Source of the DNA: Thermoanaerobaculia bacterium
GTDB taxonomy: Bacteria > Acidobacteriota > Thermoanaerobaculia > Gp7-AA8
NCBI GenBank assembly: GCA_034664845.1
Contig: JAXDGW010000027.1
Coordinates: 1,687 to 65,686, forward strand
Reading direction: 5' to 3'
Length of the DNA stretch: 64,000 nucleotides
Position numbers and translations under genes: made by a program. The notes under the pieces were generated by a model. It did not search any database and had not been told where the DNA came from. It saw nothing but the letters and a program-made list of their open reading frames with translations. Shown here piece after piece: positions 5,468 to 12,662 of this stretch (its first letter is position 1; each line of letters begins with the position of its first letter).

Positions 5468-6061
5468 TCACGCACGAACACCGAGCTCGTCGCTCCTCCC
5501 GGCATGCTTGACGTTCGCAGGCTTCGTCCCAGCGATCGCGTTGAGCATCTCCTTGTTGAACGCCGGAAGGTCGTCAGGCTTGCGGCTGCTGACGAGATTC
5601 CGGTCGCGGACACACTCGGTGTCCTGCCATTCGGCGCCGGCATTGCGCATGTCGTCCTGCAATGTCGGCCAGCTGGTGATGCGGCGTCCCTTGACGACGC
5701 CTGCCGAGATCAGCAGCCACCCGCCGTGGCAGATGACGGCGATCGGTTTCCCGGCCCGATCCATTTCCTGCACGAATTGTTGTGCGCGCTTGTCGATCCG
5801 CAGGGCGTCACTGTTGATGACTCCGCCAGGAAGGACGACGGCATCAAAGTCGGATGCCCTGGCTCGGTCGAGCGTCAGGTCTATCTTGAATCGGCCGGCT
5901 TTGTCGTGATGCTTCCACCCCTGAACCTCGCCGTCTTTGGGCGACAACAGCAGAGTTTTCGCGCCAGCGCGATCGAGTGCTTCGCACGGGCTGGTCAGCT
6001 CGATCTGCTCGAAGCCGTCTGTAACGATGATTGCGACACGTTTGCCGTTAAGGTCGGTCAT
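5468..6061 (-). CDS. DJ-1/PfpI family protein (class I glutamine amidotransferase-like), ~198 aa
   Basis: KRVAIIVTDGFEQIEL ... KPIAVICHGGWLL (nucleophile-elbow Cys). Start chosen at MTDLNGKRVAII. Confidence 0.85.
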   Translation of the reverse strand: MTDLNGKRVAIIVTDGFEQIELTSPCEALDRAGAKTLLLSPKDGEVQGWKHHDKAGRFKIDLTLDRARASDFDAVVLPGGVINSDALRIDKRAQQFVQEMDRAGKPIAVICHGGWLLISAGVVKGRRITSWPTLQDDMRNAGAEWQDTECVRDRNLVSSRKPDDLPAFNKEMLNAIAGTKPANVKHAGRSDELGVRA

Positions 6062-6164
6062 GGTTGATTGCCTCCAGTAGTTATTTGACATGCAAAACGG
6101 AGACACTCAACAGTGGAGAGCGACGGCACGGGAGCTCGTCCGCAACCGAGGGGCCGGTGCATTG

Positions 6165-6500
6165 CGTTGTAGCGGCCGCCTTCGCGGCCGCAAATATCGG
6201 GCGCGCATTTCGTCCCCCGGGCCGAGCCCGGGGCTGAGTTTGGGCAGCGCGCCTTCGCGCGCACGCGTTGCGGTTTGCCCTTGAAGATCGCGGATGACCG
6301 CCGACGCGTCAATGCCACGGCAACCGTTGCGTGTTCTAGCGGCCGCCTTCGCGGCCGCAAATCTCGGGCGCATTTCGTCCCCCGGGCCGAGCCCGGGGCT
6401 GAGTTTGGGCAGCGCGCCTTCGCGCGCACGTGAGGCGCGAACCGCGACACTTCGTGAATGCTTCGCCCGACCGAATCGTGAATGCTTCGCCCGACCGAAA
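6165..6500. repeat. tandem duplicated structured element: a ~95-bp unit present twice (6170-6268 and 6339-6432), followed by a 22-bp direct repeat x2 (6455-6498)
   Basis: Near-identical copies read directly. Each contains the palindromes gcggccgccttcgcggccgc and cccgggccgagcccggg. No credible ORF. Confidence 0.8.
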
Positions 6501-6512
6501 CAGGCATGGCGC

Positions 6513-6610
6513 TGGCGGAGGCGCGTCGGAATCGAACCGACCCTTCGACGCTTCCGCGCCGAAACAACGGTTTTGAAGACCGCGGGAGCCACCAGACCCC
6601 ATTCGCCTCC
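6513..6610 (-). tRNA. selC: tRNA-Sec (anticodon UCA), 98 nt
   Basis: Reverse complement is GGAGGCGAAUGGGGUCUGGUGGCUCCCGCGGUCUUCAAAACCGUUGUUUCGGCGCGGAAGCGUCGAAGGGUCGGUUCGAUUCCGACGCGCCUCCGCCA. It has an encoded 3' CCA and a 7-8 bp acceptor stem. The D-stem is 6 bp with a 4-nt loop. The anticodon loop CUUCAAA gives U33 plus anticodon UCA. The variable arm is long (about 22 nt) and the T-arm is GTCGG/TTCGATT/CCGAC. Confidence 0.8.
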
Positions 6611-6641: not shown

Positions 6642-7118
6642 TCACGCCGTCATGCGGCGCCAAAAAAACCGACGGATCAGCGCGTCGAGCGAGAACAAAC
6701 CCGGGCCGAAGGCGAGGATCAGCAGGGAGACGAGCAGATAAAGGAACGGCGCGGCGCTCGTGAACGCTTCCTGATCCTTGAAGAACCCCACCAGCGCTTC
6801 GTGATCGGCGGTCAGGTAGGCGACGAAGAAGTTGATCGTCAGCGGAATCGCGATCAGGCGCGCGGCCAGGCCGAGGAGGAGGAGAAGGCCCCCGACGCAC
6901 TCGAGCGTAGCGACGAAGTGGGCGTTCGCAGCCGGCATCGGGATGTGCAGATGCGTGAGGAAGTCGGTGAACCGGTCGATGTTCTCCAGCTTCCCTTTCC
7001 CGGTCTGAAAAAGCTGCCAGCCGAACATCACGCGGAGGATCAGCAGGAGTGGATCGCGCAGCTTGTCGAATCCGCGCGACATGACCGCGTCGTACCACCG
7101 GACCAGCTTGTCGATCAT
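6642..7118 (-). CDS. DoxX-family membrane protein (BufD-like position in the RiPP operon), 158 aa
   Basis: DoxX-like 4-TM topology; co-oriented with the operon, 9 bp downstream of the DUF2063 gene. Confidence 0.8.
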   Translation of the reverse strand: MIDKLVRWYDAVMSRGFDKLRDPLLLILRVMFGWQLFQTGKGKLENIDRFTDFLTHLHIPMPAANAHFVATLECVGGLLLLLGLAARLIAIPLTINFFVAYLTADHEALVGFFKDQEAFTSAAPFLYLLVSLLILAFGPGLFSLDALIRRFFWRRMTA

Positions 7119-7127
7119 CGCGTTCTC

Positions 7128-7979
7128 CTATTCGGTGATGGCGATTGCGGCGAAGAGCCCCTCGGCGCTCCAGTCGCGGAACCAGGTGAAAAGCTCCTGC
7201 TGCTCCGGCAGCCTTCGGAAGCGGCGCCGGAACGTCATGATGGCACTTCCGATGGTCTCTCCGGAAACGAGGCTGCCGAGAAACGTGAACGCTTCCTGCG
7301 AAAGCGGCGTGCGGTAGACCGAGTAGTCGCGGCGATGAACGGCCAGCCAGCTCTTTCCCCGGCGCGGCCTGATCTGGCCTCCCTCGCGGAACGATTGAAA
7401 CGCTTCGTTCGCATCGTATCGAAACGCCAGCAGGCGCAGCGCCGGGATGGGCGTGAAGCGAATCGCTTCGATCGACTCGGGCGGTACGGTCCCGATCGCA
7501 TCCGCGGGAAGCGGCTCCGCCTCGGCCTCATCGAAGACCTGCGTCATCGCCAGCTCCAGGCGCGCCAGGTCGTACAGAAACGTGCGCTGCTTGATCGTTG
7601 AATCCGCGACGTACCCGGGCAGCTTGTCGCCGAGCCGGTTGAAGGTGTAACTGCGGGACGGAAAGCGCTGCACGTAGCCTTCGACGAGATGCCCGAAGGC
7701 GTGCTCGCCGAGGAAATGTGCGACGGCCGCGTAATCGGCCTCCATCGCTTCCACCATCCGCAGCATGTACATCCCGTGATAGATGCCGAGGCGCTGGATC
7801 GGCTGCAAAGTCTTCGATGGGAGAACGATCGCGTCGACGTCGGAGGCCGCCGCTTCCGCTGCCTCGTACACGTCCCCCGGATGCGTCACCACCGCCTGCA
7901 TCCACTCCTGCAGAGGGGCGAGCGCGAGCTCAGACGGAGGCATACGCAACCTCGTCTGCCACTGCCGGGAGCACTCCAC
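7128..7979 (-). CDS. DUF2063-family protein (MbnC/BufC-like partner of the DUF692 enzyme), 283 aa
   Basis: General DUF2063 pattern (RLGIYHGMY..RMVEA...FLGE..F..LVEGYVQRFP...FLYDLARLELA). Overlaps or immediately follows the DUF692 gene. Confidence 0.7.
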   Translation of the reverse strand: MECSRQWQTRLRMPPSELALAPLQEWMQAVVTHPGDVYEAAEAAASDVDAIVLPSKTLQPIQRLGIYHGMYMLRMVEAMEADYAAVAHFLGEHAFGHLVEGYVQRFPSRSYTFNRLGDKLPGYVADSTIKQRTFLYDLARLELAMTQVFDEAEAEPLPADAIGTVPPESIEAIRFTPIPALRLLAFRYDANEAFQSFREGGQIRPRRGKSWLAVHRRDYSVYRTPLSQEAFTFLGSLVSGETIGSAIMTFRRRFRRLPEQQELFTWFRDWSAEGLFAAIAITE

Positions 7980-8802
7980 TGCTCACCGTTCGGAACGCCT
8001 CCGCCTTCCTCGCCTCGGCATGCACGGTCTCGAAGTCGGGGATGTCGGCATCCCACTCCATCAGCGTGGAGACATTGCCAGTGCGCGCGCAGGCGCGGGC
8101 GTAAAGCTGCCACACCTCGTCGATCACGAAGTCGTTGTGCGTGTCGATGATGTGCGTGCCGTGATTCGTGTGACCGGCCAGGTGAACCTGCACGACGCGA
8201 TCGGCCGGGATGGCATCGACGTACACATTCGGATCGAAGCTGTGATTGAACGAGCTGACGTAGATGTTGTTCACGTCGAGAAGCAGCCCGCAATCGCTCT
8301 CCTGCGCCAGCGCCGCCAGAAAGTCCCACTCGGTCATCGTCGAGCTGGCGAATTCGACGTACGACGAGGGGTTCTCGATCACGAGCGGACATTCCAGAAA
8401 ATCGGAGACGATCTTCACGCGCTCGGCGGTGTGGCGCAGCGACTCCTCGTTGTACGGCATCGGCAGAAGATCGTGGACGTTGCGGCCGCTCACGCCGGTC
8501 CAGCAGAGGTGGTCGGAGACCCAGCGCGCATTGACCGTCGCGGCCAGAGCTTTGAGCTTGCGGAGGTAGTCGAAGTCGATCGGATCGGTGCCGCCGATCG
8601 ACATCGACACGCCGTGGAGCACGATCGGATATTGCTCGGCGATCTTCTCGAGGACAAAACGCGGACGGCCGCCTGTGTCGAGATAGTTTTCGGAGAGCGC
8701 TTCGAACCAATCGACGGAGGGTTGCGTGCCGAGGATGTGCGAGTAGTGCACGGTCCGCAGTCCGACACCGACGCCGAGATCAGGGAGATGGAATCGATTC
8801 AT
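7930..8802 (-). CDS. DUF692 / MbnB-like (UPF0276) TIM-barrel RiPP-modifying enzyme (BufB-like), 290 aa
   Basis: Strong family-typical N-terminus (LGVGVGLRTVHYSHIL...DWFEALSENYL) and full DUF692 length. Confidence 0.85.
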   Translation of the reverse strand: MNRFHLPDLGVGVGLRTVHYSHILGTQPSVDWFEALSENYLDTGGRPRFVLEKIAEQYPIVLHGVSMSIGGTDPIDFDYLRKLKALAATVNARWVSDHLCWTGVSGRNVHDLLPMPYNEESLRHTAERVKIVSDFLECPLVIENPSSYVEFASSTMTEWDFLAALAQESDCGLLLDVNNIYVSSFNHSFDPNVYVDAIPADRVVQVHLAGHTNHGTHIIDTHNDFVIDEVWQLYARACARTGNVSTLMEWDADIPDFETVHAEARKAEAFRTVSSGVLPAVADEVAYASV

Positions 8803-8820
8803 GGGATATCGGGGGGTTGA

Positions 8821-8850
8821 TGAAGGGCAGGCGCCCGGGCCTGCCCTTCA
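8821..8850 (-). terminator. perfect stem-loop (GAAGGGCAGG-CGCCCGGG-CCTGCCCTTC) between the precursor gene and the DUF692 gene; candidate attenuator or partial terminator
   Basis: 11-bp perfect stem read in sequence; no clear U-tract. Confidence 0.45.
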
Positions 8851-8865
8851 TCGCGATGAGGCAGG

Positions 8866-9252
8866 TTACGAAGCCTTCGGCGGAACGGCGCAGCCGCTCT
8901 TGCCTTTGCAATCGTTCTTGCCGCCGGCGCCCTGACCCTTGCAGGCATTCTTGCCGGCGCAGTCGTGCTTGTACTCCTTCGAGGCGCAGCCGCCCTTGCC
9001 CTTGCACGAGTTCTTGCCCGCGCAGCCGGCATCGCCCGACTTGCAGTTGCCGTGGCTCTTACAGCTGTTGAGGCCTTTACAGGCGTGCTTGTCGGCCGCC
9101 TTCGCCGTATCAGCCATCTGCACGGCCTGCGACGACTGGTTGAGGGAAAGCGCGTTCGATTTCACCTGGTCGGCACGCAGACTGGTTCCGGCGCTGAGGC
9201 CGGCCATGACACCACCGAGAACGAGATAACGAGCCAGATCACGACTATTCAT
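8866..9252 (-). CDS. secreted Cys-rich RiPP precursor, bufferin (DUF2282 / BufA)-like, 10 Cys in repeated GKN[SAD]CKG and G[GS]GC[A] motifs, 128 aa
   Basis: N-terminal Sec-type signal peptide (…GLSAGTSLRA|DQ). Low-complexity core with 10 regularly spaced Cys. Strong AGGAGG RBS 5 nt upstream of the ATG. Sits immediately 5' of the DUF692/DUF2063/DoxX genes. Confidence 0.7.
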   Translation of the reverse strand: MNSRDLARYLVLGGVMAGLSAGTSLRADQVKSNALSLNQSSQAVQMADTAKAADKHACKGLNSCKSHGNCKSGDAGCAGKNSCKGKGGCASKEYKHDCAGKNACKGQGAGGKNDCKGKSGCAVPPKAS

Positions 9253-9362
9253 ACAATCCTCCTAAAGTTTGTTTTGAGAACCGACAGACCTACGGACGCG
9301 AGTGGACGATTGGATGCCATGGTGCCAGATCCGCCGGAAAATATCGCGGTCTGGTATCGCCG

Positions 9363-10220
9363 ATGCACCGATCCGGCGTGATGAAACAGCAACGAATGAT
9401 CGTTCCGCTCGTGATCGCAGCCGTGCTAATGGCAGCGATGAGCGGCAGCGCGCTGGCGGATTGGCGCGATGACCGCCGCCTTTCCGCGGACGTCGATCGC
9501 AATCCCGCGGTGCGCATCCGCGGCAACGTCGAGGTGCGCACCGCAGACGGCTCGCTGAGCGATTCCGCGCTCGACGAGTTCGCGGCGTTGGCGGAAAAAG
9601 GCGCCCGCGACGTGGCCCGGTTCACCAGCTTCTCCCCTCCCCCGCACATCGTGATCTACCTCTCGCCACGCGTCGACATCTCCCACACCTATCCCCACTT
9701 TCCGTCCGGCGACCATGCGCCGCGCCTGTTCATCGACAGCGCGCGCGTGGCCGATCATTCAGCGCCGTATCTCCACGAGCTCGTTCACGCGGTCGTGGGC
9801 GGCGGCGGCTCGATGTGGCTGGAGGAAGGGTTCGCCTCCTGGGTGGCATCGTCGGTGGCGAAACAGTACGGCGGCTATTACGCGCCGGTGCTGAGCAACA
9901 TGAACGATCAGGTCGATGCGCAGGCGCGTGAGGTGCTGGCGCGGACGAGCGCAGGAAGCGAGACCAGCGCCTGGTTCGCCTCCGCCAGCGCTCCCGATTT
10001 CGCCACGCAGCGCGAGCGCCGCGGCTTCTACATCGCCGCCCACTCGTTCACGAAGTTTCTCGCCGCATCCCTCGGCAAGCGGAAACTGCTGCGCATCTTC
10101 CGCGCGAATGACATCCATTCGCTGCCGGGGATCTCCGGCGTTTCGATCGACGAGTGGGAACGGCGCTGGCGGCGAAGTCTACGAGCCGAGGAGACGAGGA
10201 CGGGAGTCAACCGGCCCTGA
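9363..10220 (+). CDS. secreted hypothetical protein with an HExxH motif (LHELVHAV); putative Zn-metallopeptidase-like, 285 aa
   Basis: Signal peptide (MKQQRMIVPLVIAAVLMAAMSGSALA). Single HExxH. Divergently transcribed from the precursor gene. Confidence 0.45.
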   Translation: MHRSGVMKQQRMIVPLVIAAVLMAAMSGSALADWRDDRRLSADVDRNPAVRIRGNVEVRTADGSLSDSALDEFAALAEKGARDVARFTSFSPPPHIVIYLSPRVDISHTYPHFPSGDHAPRLFIDSARVADHSAPYLHELVHAVVGGGGSMWLEEGFASWVASSVAKQYGGYYAPVLSNMNDQVDAQAREVLARTSAGSETSAWFASASAPDFATQRERRGFYIAAHSFTKFLAASLGKRKLLRIFRANDIHSLPGISGVSIDEWERRWRRSLRAEETRTGVNRP

Positions 10221-10241
10221 CGACGCGACATGCGCCGCGAG

Positions 10242-10421
10242 GCGTCACTCTCGCTGTCATTCCGAGCGGGCGGGGCGGCGGGGGGCGAGGAATCCCCCGC
10301 CTACGGAGCGAGTCTCGTGCAGCCACAGCGCCGGTCCGTTCGTAGACTTTGAATTGCGCGATCACGCTGCGTAGTGAGGGGATCCCTCGCCCCCCTCGCC
10401 CCCGCCCGCTCGGAATGACAG
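10242..10421. repeat. palindromic MITE-like element with GCTGTCATTCCGAGCGGGCGGGGCGGCGGGGGGCGAGGAATCCCC termini in inverted orientation, 180 bp
   Basis: Near-perfect terminal inverted repeats of about 45 bp read in sequence. Confidence 0.8.
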
Positions 10422-10506
10422 ATTGCGATCGTCGCAAAACTCCTCCAAAGATCTTTAGCCCTCCTTTACGCTCACTCCGTTCCTCCTGTGTTTCACTACT
10501 CCGCAC

Positions 10507-11976
10507 ATGGACCGCCGAACGAGACCTGTAGCCATCTGGACCGGCGCAATCGGCTCCATCGCGCTCGTCACCGCGGCCGGCAATGCCATCGGGCTCAATC
10601 CCAGCACCATCGGATTCGCCTACCTCATCGTCGTCCTTCTGATCTCGCTTTGGGGCGGCCTGCTCGCCGGCACGATCTCCTCGGTCCTGGCGACGCTCTG
10701 CTACAACTTCTTTTTCTTTCCGCCGCTCTACACCTTCACGATCGAGAACCCCGCGAACTGGTTTGCTCTCGCTGCCTTTCTCGTCGCCTCGGTCACCGTG
10801 AACCGCCTCGTCGTCGCGGCGCGCGTGCAGGCGGAAAAGGCCGAGCAGCGGCGGACGGAATTGGAGACGCTCTACGGACTGAGCATCGATCTCTTCACCG
10901 CCACGAACCGCGTCGGTGCGCTCGGCGAGGCCGCGGGCCGCGCGCTGAAGCTCCTCGGCGCGCAAGCCGGCGGACTCGTTCTCTTTGACGGCTCGCCGTT
11001 CCGGCAGAACGTCGTTTCGTGGAACGGCGACAAGCCTGACGAGATCGAGGATTTGATCGCCGGTGTGGGACGCCACAAGGAGCCGCTGGAGTTTCCGTCG
11101 CCGCTTGGGCGCGACGTCTATCTCCCTCTGATCGTCGGCGGCAAGACAACAGGCACCCTTGTCGCGCGCGGAACGGAAGCATCGCGGCAGGCACTCGAAT
11201 CCGCCGCGCGGCTCGTCGCCATGGCCGTCGAGCGCGAGCGGTTCATCGAAGAGAATGCCCACGTGCAGGCATTGCGGGAAAGCGAAGCGCTCAAGACCTC
11301 GCTGCTTCGAGCGATCTCCCACGATCTCACCACGCCGATCACTGCCATCACGATCCGCACCGAGTCGATTCGCCGCCGCGCCGGAACCGACGACGAGTTG
11401 CGCGAGGACGCTGGCGCCATCGCCGAGGAGACTGCGCGGCTGCGGAGGCGAATCGACAACCTGCTCGCGATGGCGCGGCTCGAAGCAGGAAAAGCAAAGC
11501 CGCGGATCGAACCGACGCCGCCCGCGGATCTCTTCCGCGCCACACGCGAGAACCTTCCGATCGTCTTCAGCGCCCGCCCGATCACGGTTCACGTCGAGCC
11601 TGACTGTCCCGACGCGAACGTCGATCCATCGCTGGCGCTGGAGATTCTCGTGAACCTCGTCGAGAACGCGCATCGCGTTTCGCCCGCGTCTGCCACGATC
11701 GAGCTCGTCGCGCGCAAACATCCGCTTGATGCGGGCAAGGTTCGGATCGAGATCCTCGACCGCGGCCCCGGACTGCCGCCGGGCGTAGTCGATGCCGATG
11801 GCAACGTCGCCACCGAGACCACCGACGTCGCCCAGCGCGGCCTCGGGCTGGAGATCGCGCGCAGCCTGGCCGCCGCAAATGGCGGAAGCATCGGGCTGGC
11901 GCCACGGCCCGGCGGCGGTACGATCGCGCGCATCGACCTTCCCGCGGCGCTGCTCCCCGAGGAAGTGTCGTCATGA
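10507..11976 (+). CDS. sensor histidine kinase, KdpD C-terminal-like (DUF4118-GAF-HisKA-HATPase) lacking the N-terminal Kdp sensor/USP domains, 489 aa
   Basis: DUF4118 signature (TIGFAYLIVVLLISLWGGLLAGTISSVLATLCYNFFFFPPLYTF), H-box SHDLTTP, G-boxes (GLGLEIARSL). Confidence 0.8.
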   Translation: MDRRTRPVAIWTGAIGSIALVTAAGNAIGLNPSTIGFAYLIVVLLISLWGGLLAGTISSVLATLCYNFFFFPPLYTFTIENPANWFALAAFLVASVTVNRLVVAARVQAEKAEQRRTELETLYGLSIDLFTATNRVGALGEAAGRALKLLGAQAGGLVLFDGSPFRQNVVSWNGDKPDEIEDLIAGVGRHKEPLEFPSPLGRDVYLPLIVGGKTTGTLVARGTEASRQALESAARLVAMAVERERFIEENAHVQALRESEALKTSLLRAISHDLTTPITAITIRTESIRRRAGTDDELREDAGAIAEETARLRRRIDNLLAMARLEAGKAKPRIEPTPPADLFRATRENLPIVFSARPITVHVEPDCPDANVDPSLALEILVNLVENAHRVSPASATIELVARKHPLDAGKVRIEILDRGPGLPPGVVDADGNVATETTDVAQRGLGLEIARSLAAANGGSIGLAPRPGGGTIARIDLPAALLPEEVSS

Positions 11977-12662
11977 CCATCGCGAGCGTGATTCTCATCG
12001 TCGACGACGATCCCGCTATCCGCGATTCGCTATCAAAAGAGCTGCGTGCCGCCGGCTACGCAACCACGACTGCCGCTGATGGCGGAGAAGGCCTCAGCGC
12101 GTTTCAGTCACATGCGCCCGATCTCGTCCTGACCGATCTGGCGATGCCACGCTCGGACGGATTCGAGTTAATCGCCGGCATCCGGGCCACGTCGCGAATC
12201 CCCATCCTCGTGCTCTCGGTCCGCGGCGCCGATGCCGACAAAGTCCGCGCCCTCGACCTCGGCGCCGACGATTTCGTGACCAAGCCGTTCTCGATGGCCG
12301 AGCTGTCCGCCCGCGTCCGCGCACATCTACGCAGAACCACCACGGCATCAACGACAACCCTCGCCTTCCCCGACCTGACGATCGACCTCGACCGCCGCCG
12401 CGTGGTCCAGGGCGGCCGCGAAGTGCGCCTCACGCCGACCGAGTTTTCACTGCTCGAGCTGCTGGCCTCCAACGCTGGCAAACCGCTCTTCATCGAACAG
12501 ATCATCGCCCGCGTCTGGCGCTCCGCACCCAGCACCAGCGCCGATACGGTGCGCGTGCACATGAGCTCCCTGCGAAAAAAGATCGAGCCGAATCCATCAG
12601 AGCCGCAATACATCATCACCGAGCCGTGGGTCGGCTACCGCTTCATCGCGGAACCGGTTTGA
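11973..12662 (+). CDS. OmpR-family response regulator (KdpE-like), 229 aa
   Basis: REC (ILIVDDDPAIRD...LVLTDLAMPRSDG) plus winged helix (…TVRVHMSSLRKKIE…GVGYRF). ATGA overlap with the kinase gene. Confidence 0.85.
   Translation: MTIASVILIVDDDPAIRDSLSKELRAAGYATTTAADGGEGLSAFQSHAPDLVLTDLAMPRSDGFELIAGIRATSRIPILVLSVRGADADKVRALDLGADDFVTKPFSMAELSARVRAHLRRTTTASTTTLAFPDLTIDLDRRRVVQGGREVRLTPTEFSLLELLASNAGKPLFIEQIIARVWRSAPSTSADTVRVHMSSLRKKIEPNPSEPQYIITEPWVGYRFIAEPV

Follow-up and report, generated by a model that had tools for sequence, protein, structure and literature searches.

A probable Buf2-type bufferin operon with a double-domain, ten-cysteine precursor in an uncultured Thermoanaerobaculia bacterium

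The window, by which we mean the whole stretch of 64,000 nucleotides that was analyzed, comes from an uncultured Thermoanaerobaculia bacterium (Acidobacteriota) and has at 6642-9252 on the minus strand four closely packed genes in the order bufA-bufB-bufC-bufD. The original prediction had seen here four co-oriented, packed genes; all four ORFs are present, and its reading of them as a bufABCD bufferin operon (precursor with a putative signal peptide, MNIO, DUF2063 protein, DoxX protein) is supported by family HMM scores and by the gene order. None of the results it had named as refuting it turned up. A JGI gene call, made independently on the identical contig, has the same four genes. The features, in the direction of transcription, are as follows.

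9258-9263, minus strand: AGGAGG Shine-Dalgarno site, 5 nt upstream of the bufA ATG, read from the sequence
8866-9252, minus strand: bufA, 128-residue Buf2-type bufferin precursor with 10 Cys, from the ORF
9172-9252, minus strand: putative signal peptide, BufA residues 1-27, MNSRDLARY then LVLGGVMAGLSAG then TSLRA, by manual reading of the n-, h- and c-regions
8980-9093, minus strand: Buf2 domain 1, BufA residues 54-91, six Cys as C-x5-C-x5-C-x6-C-x5-C-x5-C, by alignment
8881-8970, minus strand: Buf2 domain 2, BufA residues 95-124, four Cys as C-x5-C-x10-C-x5-C, by alignment
8819-8852, minus strand: hairpin with a perfect 14-bp stem and 6-nt loop in the 63-nt bufA-bufB spacer, by folding
7930-8802, minus strand: bufB, 290-residue MNIO (DUF692) bufferin maturase, by NCBIfam and Pfam
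7128-7943, minus strand: bufC, 271-residue DUF2063 partner protein, by Pfam
6642-7118, minus strand: bufD, 158-residue DoxX-family membrane protein, by Pfam

The length of BufC is counted from the ATG and agrees with the 271 residues of the JGI call; the mechanical ORF list opens the gene at GTG 7979. The bufB and bufC genes overlap by 14 nt (ATGCCTCCGTCTGA), with the bufC start overlapping the bufB stop, and 9 nt separate bufC from bufD, with an AGGAG spanning the bufC stop. The window has no second copy of any buf gene, and because GC content is even across the region (0.59-0.69), there is no sign of recent transfer.

BufB scores 364.2 bits against the NCBIfam model MNIO_BufB (cutoff 310) and 364.5 bits against Pfam PF05114 MbnB_TglH_ChrH, which is the match to DUF692/MbnB-family models that had been forecast for the enzyme. 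In the PDB the closest entry by sequence is 3BWW (E = 1e-53). The candidate iron ligands and catalytic base (H63, D97, H98, E143, D176, N179, H207, H211, D220, H222, E249 and D251) are invariant in 75-77 homologues. Directly after the catalytic Asp there is Ala252, where Cys-Lys MNIOs usually have Asp (PMC13097082), so the site selectivity of BufB may differ from that of Caulobacter Buf2.

BufC matches Pfam DUF2063 with 55.9 bits (cutoff 27.2) over residues 11-111 of the 271-residue form. A PDB search by sequence gave nothing significant, and a 45-sequence BufC profile yielded an RNase H match at E = 0.4, which is chance, so the protein was examined by fold instead. The AlphaFold2 model has a pLDDT of 91.5, and Foldseek against the PDB places 8hci_A, chain A of the TglHI holoenzyme, at the top (E = 6.9e-8, TM 0.59), followed by weaker matches to MbnC and to the leader-binding RRE protein TbiB1. 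We take 8hci chain A to be TglI, the MNIO partner. The Pfam score and these model-based matches point to BufC as a DUF2063 partner with an RRE-like domain. BufD is a DoxX protein at 67.4 bits (Pfam, cutoff 23.6).

The ten Cys of BufA are at residues 58, 64, 70, 77, 83, 89, 98, 104, 115 and 121, giving the spacing class 6-6-7-6-6-9-6-11-6. The original prediction was right that six of them precede K-[GS] and four precede A, but the "about five tandem core-like repeats" it described are really two Buf2 domains, with 6+4 Cys. The spacing of domain 1 is canonical for Buf2; this domain aligns column for column with 6-Cys and 12-Cys homologues, and its 6-6-7-6-6 pattern is also found in most single-domain precursors of the genome loci. 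Domain 2, aligned with homologues of the 6+6 form, has an 8-column gap, and the missing 8 residues carried Cys III and IV; its first cysteine, Cys I', precedes Ala and not Lys. An 11-residue unit, G-x-N-x-C-K-G-x-G-x-C, occurs four times across the two domains, in one case without its last Cys. The NCBIfam model Cu_RiPP_BufA2 matches BufA in two stretches, the better-scoring one being residues 34-90, at E = 5.4e-12 and 45.7 bits, which is below the 60-bit cutoff. BufA has no Pfam DUF2282 hit, so the claim that the precursor is not of the DUF2282 type was correct, and no EGKCG motif. A PDB sequence search with BufA found no match, and its AlphaFold2 model, built on a 30-sequence alignment, is uninformative (pLDDT 45, pTM 0.16), for which reason the two-domain fold and the disulfide pairing are without structural support.

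BufA is a Buf2 bufferin (BUF_6/12Cys, "Cys-Lys captophorin") and not a new repeat type. The strict Buf2 count is 6 or 2x6 Cys at canonical spacing, and since the 8-residue deletion leaves only four Cys in domain 2, BufA counts as a derived 6+4 variant and falls outside the strict 6- or 12-Cys membership. The description "unusually repetitive" is not supported, on two grounds: this is the already described duplicated Buf2 domain minus Cys III and IV of the second copy, and 6+4 is the commonest pattern among the nearest relatives, recurring in distant ones. BufA has 4424 homologues at E <= 1e-3. Architecture classes were counted over 121 sequences, namely the query and its 120 nearest cluster representatives. 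The 6+4 architecture accounts for 63 of the 121, beside 4+4 and 6+6 forms, and it turns up again in relatives at <50% identity. The forms seen beyond 6 and 12 Cys are 6+4, 4+4, 2+6+6 and 6+6+6. The short 4-Cys domain, present twice in the 8-Cys relatives, occurs as 6+4, 4+4 and 4+6 in several phyla.

The whole acidobacterial clade lies at the edge of the curated BufA2 model. Scores of close relatives with 6 or 12 Cys range from 36 to 60.5 bits, and the only one to pass the cutoff, at 60.5 bits, is the near relative P0022, a 12-Cys (6+6) precursor that shares the putative signal peptide and domain 1 with the window BufA. Precursors of the 6+4 and 4+4 types miss the curated cutoff and so carry the annotation hypothetical protein. 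Of 80 species-representative genomes, 71 have BufB and 63 keep the order bufA, bufB, bufC; DoxX is directly 3' of bufC in 20.

The putative signal peptide of BufA was read manually. Its n-region is basic (R4, R8), its hydrophobic core spans 13 residues, with hydropathy highest (about 2.06) at residues 14-15, and an L-R-A motif marks the predicted cleavage site, after Ala27. The same reading shows neither a lipobox nor a twin arginine. Mean column conservation is 0.84 over the signal peptide versus 0.45 over the linker that follows. Export of BufA is supported by relatives in which this N-terminal stretch is unmistakably a lipoprotein or RRxF signal. As a separate observation on the genome loci, the RRxF motif is in 25 of 52 multi-domain loci versus 2 of 27 single-domain ones; about half of the multi-domain relatives have twin-arginine (Tat-like) signals, and the clade of the window seems to have lost the RR.

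Both expression signals of the original prediction, the strong AGGAGG site before the precursor gene and the perfect hairpin before the enzyme gene, hold up. A GGAGG-type site before bufA is retained in the close relatives L006 and L008. The 81-nt hairpin region folds at -33.5 kcal/mol (z = -4.1), and none of 200 shuffles folds as well. A strong hairpin in this spacer is conserved, with z < -2 in 71% of 65 Buf2 loci (median -3.1), and the hairpin sequences are unrelated to one another. No U tract follows the hairpin in the window, and bufB has no recognizable Shine-Dalgarno site. A sigma-70 promoter scan upstream of bufA found nothing. A conserved TGGCA-N-TGCA-like element there is common to L008; as a sigma-54 promoter it was rejected, the GG-to-GC spacing being 7 nt and not 10. 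Terminator-like sites at 6669-6688 and 6744-6759 were likewise set aside, as both fall within bufD and such sites are no more numerous than expected by chance.

The closest characterized system is that of Caulobacter vibrioides Buf2 (BufA2B2C2), whose BufA2 we compared by way of the NCBIfam model and what has been published on it. Shared are a precursor with a signal peptide, putative in the window, the C-K-G-x-N-x-C-K-G motif and the 6-Cys spacing (PMC11626156, PMC13097082), and an MNIO gene then a DUF2063 gene after the precursor gene. The differences are that the window precursor has two domains, the second without Cys III and IV, where Caulobacter has one; that it scores below the curated BufA2 cutoff; that BufB has Ala and not Asp after the catalytic Asp; that a DoxX gene is present, which the Caulobacter buf2 cluster does not have; and that the host belongs to Acidobacteriota, with no SigF-type sigma or anti-sigma gene among the neighbors examined. 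Duplicated 6-Cys domains make up the 12-Cys Buf2, about 10% of Buf2, such as WP_077285100 of Cognaticolwellia aestuarii (PMC12452194). With these the window precursor shares the tandem two-domain architecture and aligns end to end except for the one 8-column gap, but its second domain is C-x5-C-x10-C-x5-C, and because of the 8-residue deletion two of the eight modification sites predicted for the 12-Cys form are missing.

The order precursor-MNIO-DUF2063-DoxX is that of the Buf1 bufABCD clusters (the Caulobacter and Cupriavidus "gig" operons). Unlike Buf1, the window locus has no DUF2282 hit, has other Cys spacing and motifs, and has no SigF/NrsF genes among the neighbors examined. The EGKCG captophorins (oxazolin, fontiphorin, bulbicupramide), which are modified at many sites and bind copper, also have a repetitive multi-Cys precursor, an MNIO and DUF2063 pair and, often, a DoxX protein. 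Their motif is Lys-Cys (EGKCG) versus Cys-Lys here, and FonBC does not process NACKG substrates (PMC13097082). Scores against the Hvf/oxazolin families are low, at 258 bits for HvfB (cutoff 360), 30.9 for HvfC (142) and, for BufD against the NCBIfam HvfX family, 57.9 (80).

We hold with good confidence that these genes form an operon for making a Buf2-type bufferin (Cys-Lys captophorin). It is an ordinary operon of its kind, and its precursor has the known double-domain form, less two Cys deleted from the second domain. By analogy with characterized bufferins, the system may work as follows. The bufA message would be translated efficiently from the AGGAGG site, and the hairpin after bufA, together with a bufB lacking a ribosome-binding site, probably keeps precursor output well above that of the enzyme. 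In the cytoplasm, the iron enzyme BufB would oxidize selected Cys, withdrawing four electrons from each, to 5-thiooxazoles, while the DUF2063/RRE-like BufC would hold it on its substrate. The signal peptide would then carry the modified protein across the membrane and be cut near Ala27, leaving a Lys/Gly-rich product of about 100 residues that would remain in the periplasm and sequester excess copper, its presumed ligand. The DoxX protein would be an accessory redox or membrane component that modification does not need, as DoxX is dispensable for bufferin modification (PMC11626156).

Bufferins are copper-binding, copper-induced and Sec-exported (PMC11626156). A product that instead buffers or detoxifies a soft metal other than copper (Au, Ag, Hg, Cd), or counters redox or sulfur stress, with DoxX helping and the neighboring two-component system, not a copper sensor, in control of expression, we consider unlikely, though likelier than the other alternatives. 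Counting against the main reading, no copper-resistance gene or copper-type regulator is found within about 6 kb of the operon. For the alternative, a two-component system adjoins bufA here (response regulator at 11973-12662) and in L006 and L008, and a different one lies directly upstream in L003, L004 and L009; neither reaches the cutoffs of heavy-metal sensor or regulator models, so that a regulatory link to the neighboring system is speculation. DoxX is fused to the methionine sulfoxide reductase MsrA in L003 and L004, which points to oxidative-stress repair, and MerC-Buf2 fusions and "gold-induced genes" have been reported (PMC12452194, PMC11626156). Against it, all thiooxazole peptides tested so far bind copper, and copper induced the bufferins that were tested, whereas Fe, Zn and Mn did not (PMC11626156, PMC12538549, PMC13097082). 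An upstream 285-residue HELVH protein was considered as a component of the system and rejected, as it matches no family and is absent from L008, L003 and L009.

Staying with a copper-binding bufferin, there is the matter of which Cys are modified. In Buf2 of Caulobacter, each of the four central Cys loses 4.03 Da, and Cys I and VI stay unmodified and are likely joined in a disulfide (PMC11626156). On that analogy the outer Cys of each domain would form a disulfide and the inner Cys would be modified, the 4-Cys logic of Buf1 (outer pair disulfide, inner pair thiooxazoles) being the prediction for domain 2. The predicted product would have 4 + 2 = 6 thiooxazoles (Cys64, 70, 77, 83, 104 and 115) and 2 disulfides (Cys58/89 and Cys98/121), that is, -28.2 Da on a 9998.6-Da core (residues 28-128, monoisotopic mass). 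The original prediction had expected a multi-site, multi-heterocycle product; products with 6 or 7 heterocycles are already known (bulbicupramide, PMC12538549; fontiphorin, PMC13097082). In these two every Cys is modified (7 thiooxazoles in fontiphorin, PMC13097082, and 6 in bulbicupramide, PMC12538549), and the C-K-G context of the predicted modification sites in BufA also surrounds Cys58, whose counterpart in Buf2 escapes modification. It could accordingly be argued that all ten Cys become thiooxazoles, with no structural disulfides, a loss of 40.3 Da and room for more metal, on the pattern of the EGKCG-type captophorins. We rate this a little lower still than a ligand other than copper: the only characterized Buf2 leaves Cys I and VI unmodified (PMC11626156), and every one of the 6, 6+6, 6+4 and 4+4 forms retains the outer Cys, the inner pair alone being dispensable, which fits a structural role for the outer pair.

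A methanobactin-type secreted chalkophore for copper acquisition, with oxazolone-thioamide groups, to which the "methanobactin-type" of the original title alluded, is highly improbable, for although BufB is in the same Pfam family as MbnB, and MbnABC likewise has an MNIO superfamily enzyme and oxidizes Cys to a copper-binding heterocycle, the score against the MbnB equivalog TIGR04159 is 43.9 bits against a cutoff of 325, which effectively refutes the idea, the partner is of DUF2063 type and not MbnC, the precursor would have about 100 residues after signal cleavage and is not a short leader-core peptide, and no MbnA- or MbnC-type gene, exporter or TonB receptor is nearby.

The Buf2-type assignment extends the recently described bufferin (captophorin) copper-defense system to Thermoanaerobaculia, a class that the published survey of taxa (supplement of PMC13097082) does not list. 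Nothing here alters the understanding of the system's mode of action, and for specialists the locus is a useful data point and not a surprise. It does indicate that the "6 or 12 Cys" rule for Buf2 is too simple, and natural variants with and without the inner Cys pair, but otherwise alike, lend themselves to the question of how many thiooxazoles a metal site requires.

One further proposal is offered tentatively, and we would sooner bet against it than for it: that the short 4-Cys Buf2 domain is a selected recurrent module and not decay, and that multi-domain bufferins are often exported by Tat and not Sec. The short domain may have arisen by precise loss of the Cys III-IV segment, and the unusually conserved signal peptide of the window (MNSRDLARY...) looks like a Tat-type signal minus the twin arginine. 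The key bufferin and captophorin papers make no mention of Tat export. If Tat export were true, modification, folding and possibly metal loading would come before export in many bufferins, contradicting the published model in which the protein "folds around copper as it leaves Sec", and a selected short module would tune the number of thiooxazoles, hence of metal ions, per bufferin.

The four minus-strand genes read as a bufferin operon are real: our ORFs agree with independent JGI calls, which give the same four genes on an identical metagenome contig (3300044722, Ga0467039_0000060, 128 kb), and the bufferin reading made in the original prediction is right.

Genes of the operon, in transcription order
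8866-9252, minus strand: bufA, precursor, 128 aa
7930-8802, minus strand: bufB, MNIO (DUF692) enzyme, 290 aa
7128-7943, minus strand: bufC, DUF2063 partner, 271 aa
6642-7118, minus strand: bufD, DoxX protein, 158 aa

JGI also has bufC at 271 aa, with an ATG start that overlaps the bufB stop by 14 nt; the gaps are 63 nt between bufA and bufB and 9 nt between bufC and bufD. GC content is even over the region, and long plus-strand ORFs opposite the buf genes were rejected as high-GC shadows. The 64-kb window has no second buf copy.

BufA has no match in Pfam. Against NCBIfam Cu_RiPP_BufA2 it aligns in two stretches (E = 5.4e-12) with 45.7 bits, under the curated cutoff of 60. A database search finds 4424 relatives at E <= 1e-3, the named ones being hypothetical proteins from Thermoanaerobaculia or Acidobacteriota MAGs. 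The 10 Cys had been counted correctly, with K-[GS] after six of them and A after the other four. The BufA query and its 120 best cluster representatives (n = 121) were sorted by Cys spacing, with classes named by the Cys in each tandem domain.

Cys-spacing classes
6+4 (BufA of the window): 6-6-7-6-6-9-6-11-6, 63/121
4+4: 6-11-6-9-6-11-6, 32/121
6+6: 6-6-7-6-6-9-6-6-7-6-6, 12/121
Single 6-Cys domain: 6-6-7-6-6, 2/121
Extra N-terminal C-x5-C pair before 6+4: 3/121

The other nine have truncated or irregular Cys patterns, each seen in one or two sequences. BufA consists of two tandem domains of the Buf2 (BUF_6/12Cys) class, with 6 and 4 Cys: in alignment with the 6+6 proteins domain 2 is without 8 consecutive residues, ...CKGQGGCKTGDASCAGKNSC... 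becoming ...CKGQGAGGKNDC..., and these residues had held Cys III and Cys IV. The 4+4 proteins align with the identical deletion in both domains. The periodicity that had been described as about five tandem core-like repeats is an 11-residue unit, G-x-N-x-C-K-G-x-G-x-C, present in four copies; instead of an unusual repeat, BufA is a deletion variant of a known duplicated Buf2 domain.

The architecture is not very unusual. Across 80 species-representative genomes, the family takes 6, 12 (6+6), 14, 16 and 18-19 Cys forms, along with 6+4 (locus L009) and 4+4 (L008, L081). When 1.84 billion representatives at 50% identity were searched exhaustively with HMMER, 982 clusters reached E <= 1e-3 and 223 reached E <= 1e-10. 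Among the best 150 of the 982, single 6-Cys domains make up about half and 6+6 forms ~30, and the short 4-Cys domain occurs in several unrelated-looking clusters (6+4, 4+4, 4+6), some with quite different signal peptides, lipoprotein signals among them. Buf2 has been described as having 6 Cys in 90% and 12 in the remainder, the 12-Cys forms being duplicated domains, with hundreds more MNIO-associated ORFs having 1-18 Cys (PMC12452194). Larger Buf2 arrays (L049 4896-5471, L057, and representative precursor P0342) include a 6+6+6 precursor with 19 Cys from a Planctomycetota genome and a 190-aa representative with 25 Cys, C-C pairs included; none is covered by the 6/12 label. Characterised products already include some bearing six or seven thiooxazoles (PMC12538549, PMC13097082). 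The closest genomes are Thermoanaerobaculia MAGs (77% identity), then an Acidobacteria MAG (70%). The published taxonomy table for captophorins has 69 acidobacterial clusters and 0 from Thermoanaerobaculia (PMC13097082 supplement); the operon is a bufferin case from a class unsampled until now.

The product can be predicted by analogy with Caulobacter, where BufB and BufC are both required for modification and together suffice, DoxX is dispensable for it, modified Cys lose 4 Da to become 5-thiooxazoles, and in Buf2 the four central Cys are modified, leaving the first and last unmodified and probably in a disulfide (PMC11626156). The 6+4 BufA would then have thiooxazoles at Cys64, 70, 77, 83, 104 and 115 and disulfides Cys58-Cys89 and Cys98-Cys121, with a predicted shift of -28.2 Da on the core 28-128 (computed monoisotopic mass 9998.64 Da). 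Modification of all ten Cys was considered as an alternative. Site selectivity calls for caution because the residue after Cys I' in domain 2 is Ala, not Lys, and because Ala252 comes next to the catalytic Asp251 in BufB. The 6-Cys loci examined mostly have Asp at the position of Ala252 (EWDD), and multi-domain loci have D, E or A; Cys-Lys MNIOs have Asp at the equivalent position (PMC13097082). In Caulobacter the signal peptide is cleaved from the exported product, which can bind copper as either Cu(I) or Cu(II) and gives protection against it (PMC11626156); a metal other than copper, or redox stress, was also considered for the present system.

A methanobactin-type system is excluded by the family scores, bufB reaching 364.2 bits against the NCBIfam equivalog MNIO_BufB (cutoff 310) and 364.5 bits against Pfam MbnB_TglH_ChrH, and falling far under the respective cutoffs of the HvfB, ApyH, ChrH and MbnB equivalogs. 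Across 75-77 homologues there is no variation at BufB residues H63, D97, H98, E143, D176, N179, H207, H211, D220, H222, E249 and D251. The motif pattern in 3BWW/TglH alignments, together with the MbnB ligand set, marks them as candidates for the iron ligands and the catalytic base. BufC has a DUF2063 domain (55.9 bits), and its confident AlphaFold2 model (51-sequence alignment, pLDDT 91.5, pTM 0.85) has its top PDB fold match to TglHI holoenzyme chain A (8hci_A, E = 6.9e-8, TM 0.59), which we take to be TglI, partner of the MNIO TglH; MbnC and TbiB1, an RRE protein that binds leaders, match weakly. BufD belongs to the DoxX family (67.4 bits). A 6+4 relative with 71% identity (L003 and L004, 8086-9147) has DoxX and a methionine-S-sulfoxide reductase domain in one fusion protein (MsrA, 181.6 bits, cutoff 108), followed by a DUF5996-like gene; the fusion hints at a DoxX component serving oxidative-damage repair.

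BufA residues 1-27, the putative signal peptide, combine a basic n-region with a hydrophobic core of 13 residues and a cleavage motif, L-R-A. Conservation within the 6+4 class is 0.84 here, 0.45 in the next linker, and 0.92 and 0.89 in the Cys domains, compatible with a second role as recognition sequence for BufC, a possibility left open in PMC11626156. Many Buf2-type precursors have a Tat-like start, a twin arginine (e.g. M-x-RR-[DEKQ]-F-[TNS]-K) with hydrophobic residues after it.

Loci with twin-arginine precursor N-termini
L013, L014, L019, L021, L024, L026-L028, L030, L032-L036, L040, L041, L046-L048, L050-L052, L064, L080-L082; also representatives P0243-P0380

Scored by pattern match only, the motif is concentrated in multi-domain precursors (>=8 Cys), at 25/52 genome loci versus 2/27 single-domain, and among representatives in 23/72 multi-domain versus 0/76 with 6-7 Cys. 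BufA itself starts MNSRDLARY..., like the Tat-type starts but with SR in place of RR, and RR is found in 0/120 of its nearest relatives. The three main bufferin and captophorin papers make no mention of Tat.

AGGAGG lies 5 nt ahead of the bufA ATG, and the sequence upstream of bufB has no purine-rich site. Between them, 8819-8852 pairs perfectly over 14 bp around a 6-nt loop (z = -4.1, 0/200 shuffles); without a following U tract, this hairpin departs from the textbook intrinsic terminator. A structured bufA-bufB spacer is a conserved family property, since most of 65 Buf2 loci fold unusually well despite unrelated sequences (71% with z < -2, median z -3.1, median uninterrupted stem 9 bp). By analogy with expression-ratio control in other RiPP operons, the hairpin, the strong ribosome-binding site of bufA and the lack of one at bufB fit a raised precursor-to-enzyme ratio, which may come about through partial termination or 3'-end stabilisation. 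Very long near-perfect hairpins occur in the bufA-bufB spacers of L003, L004, L008 and L022, much larger than a terminator needs: L004 has a 22-bp continuous run within a ~38-pair extended stem (-69.9 kcal/mol, z = -8.5), and L008 reaches -126.6 kcal/mol (z = -11.9).

Across the 80 genome loci, a BufB homologue is present in 71, bufA, bufB and bufC are colinear in that order on one strand in 63, and DoxX is encoded within 5 kb in 30 and directly after bufC in 20. A two-component system adjoins bufA in several relatives (L003/L004 3784-5924; L009) and in the window (9363-12662, plus strand). The window, L006 and L008 have a DUF4118 histidine kinase and OmpR-type regulator divergent from bufA; L003, L004 and L009 have another regulator-kinase pair, on the same strand and ending ~76 nt upstream of bufA. 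Both pairs score under cutoffs against heavy-metal sensor and regulator models; in published surveys, about 8.5% of such clusters are listed with regulators of the PhoB type and kinases resembling CopS. Before the kinase gene, also divergent from bufA, 9363-10220 (plus strand) encodes a protein of 285 aa that has a hydrophobic, signal-like segment at its N-terminus, contains an HELVH (HExxH) motif and matches no family in Pfam or NCBIfam; it is 57% conserved in L006 and missing from L008, L003 and L009. On the other side, a same-strand tRNA gene lies 31 nt past the stop codon of bufD.

Features beyond bufD
6513-6610, minus strand: tRNA-Sec, anticodon TCA (ARAGORN; Rfam RF01852, 71.1 bits, gathering score 47)
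6452-6499: perfect 24-nt tandem duplication
6166-6272 and 6333-6437: direct repeats of ~105 nt, 92-95% identical, about 166 nt apart

The repeats (6166-6499) sit between tRNA-Sec and a DJ-1/PfpI gene (5468-6106), and they may represent a REP-like element or a scar left by integration beside the tRNA.
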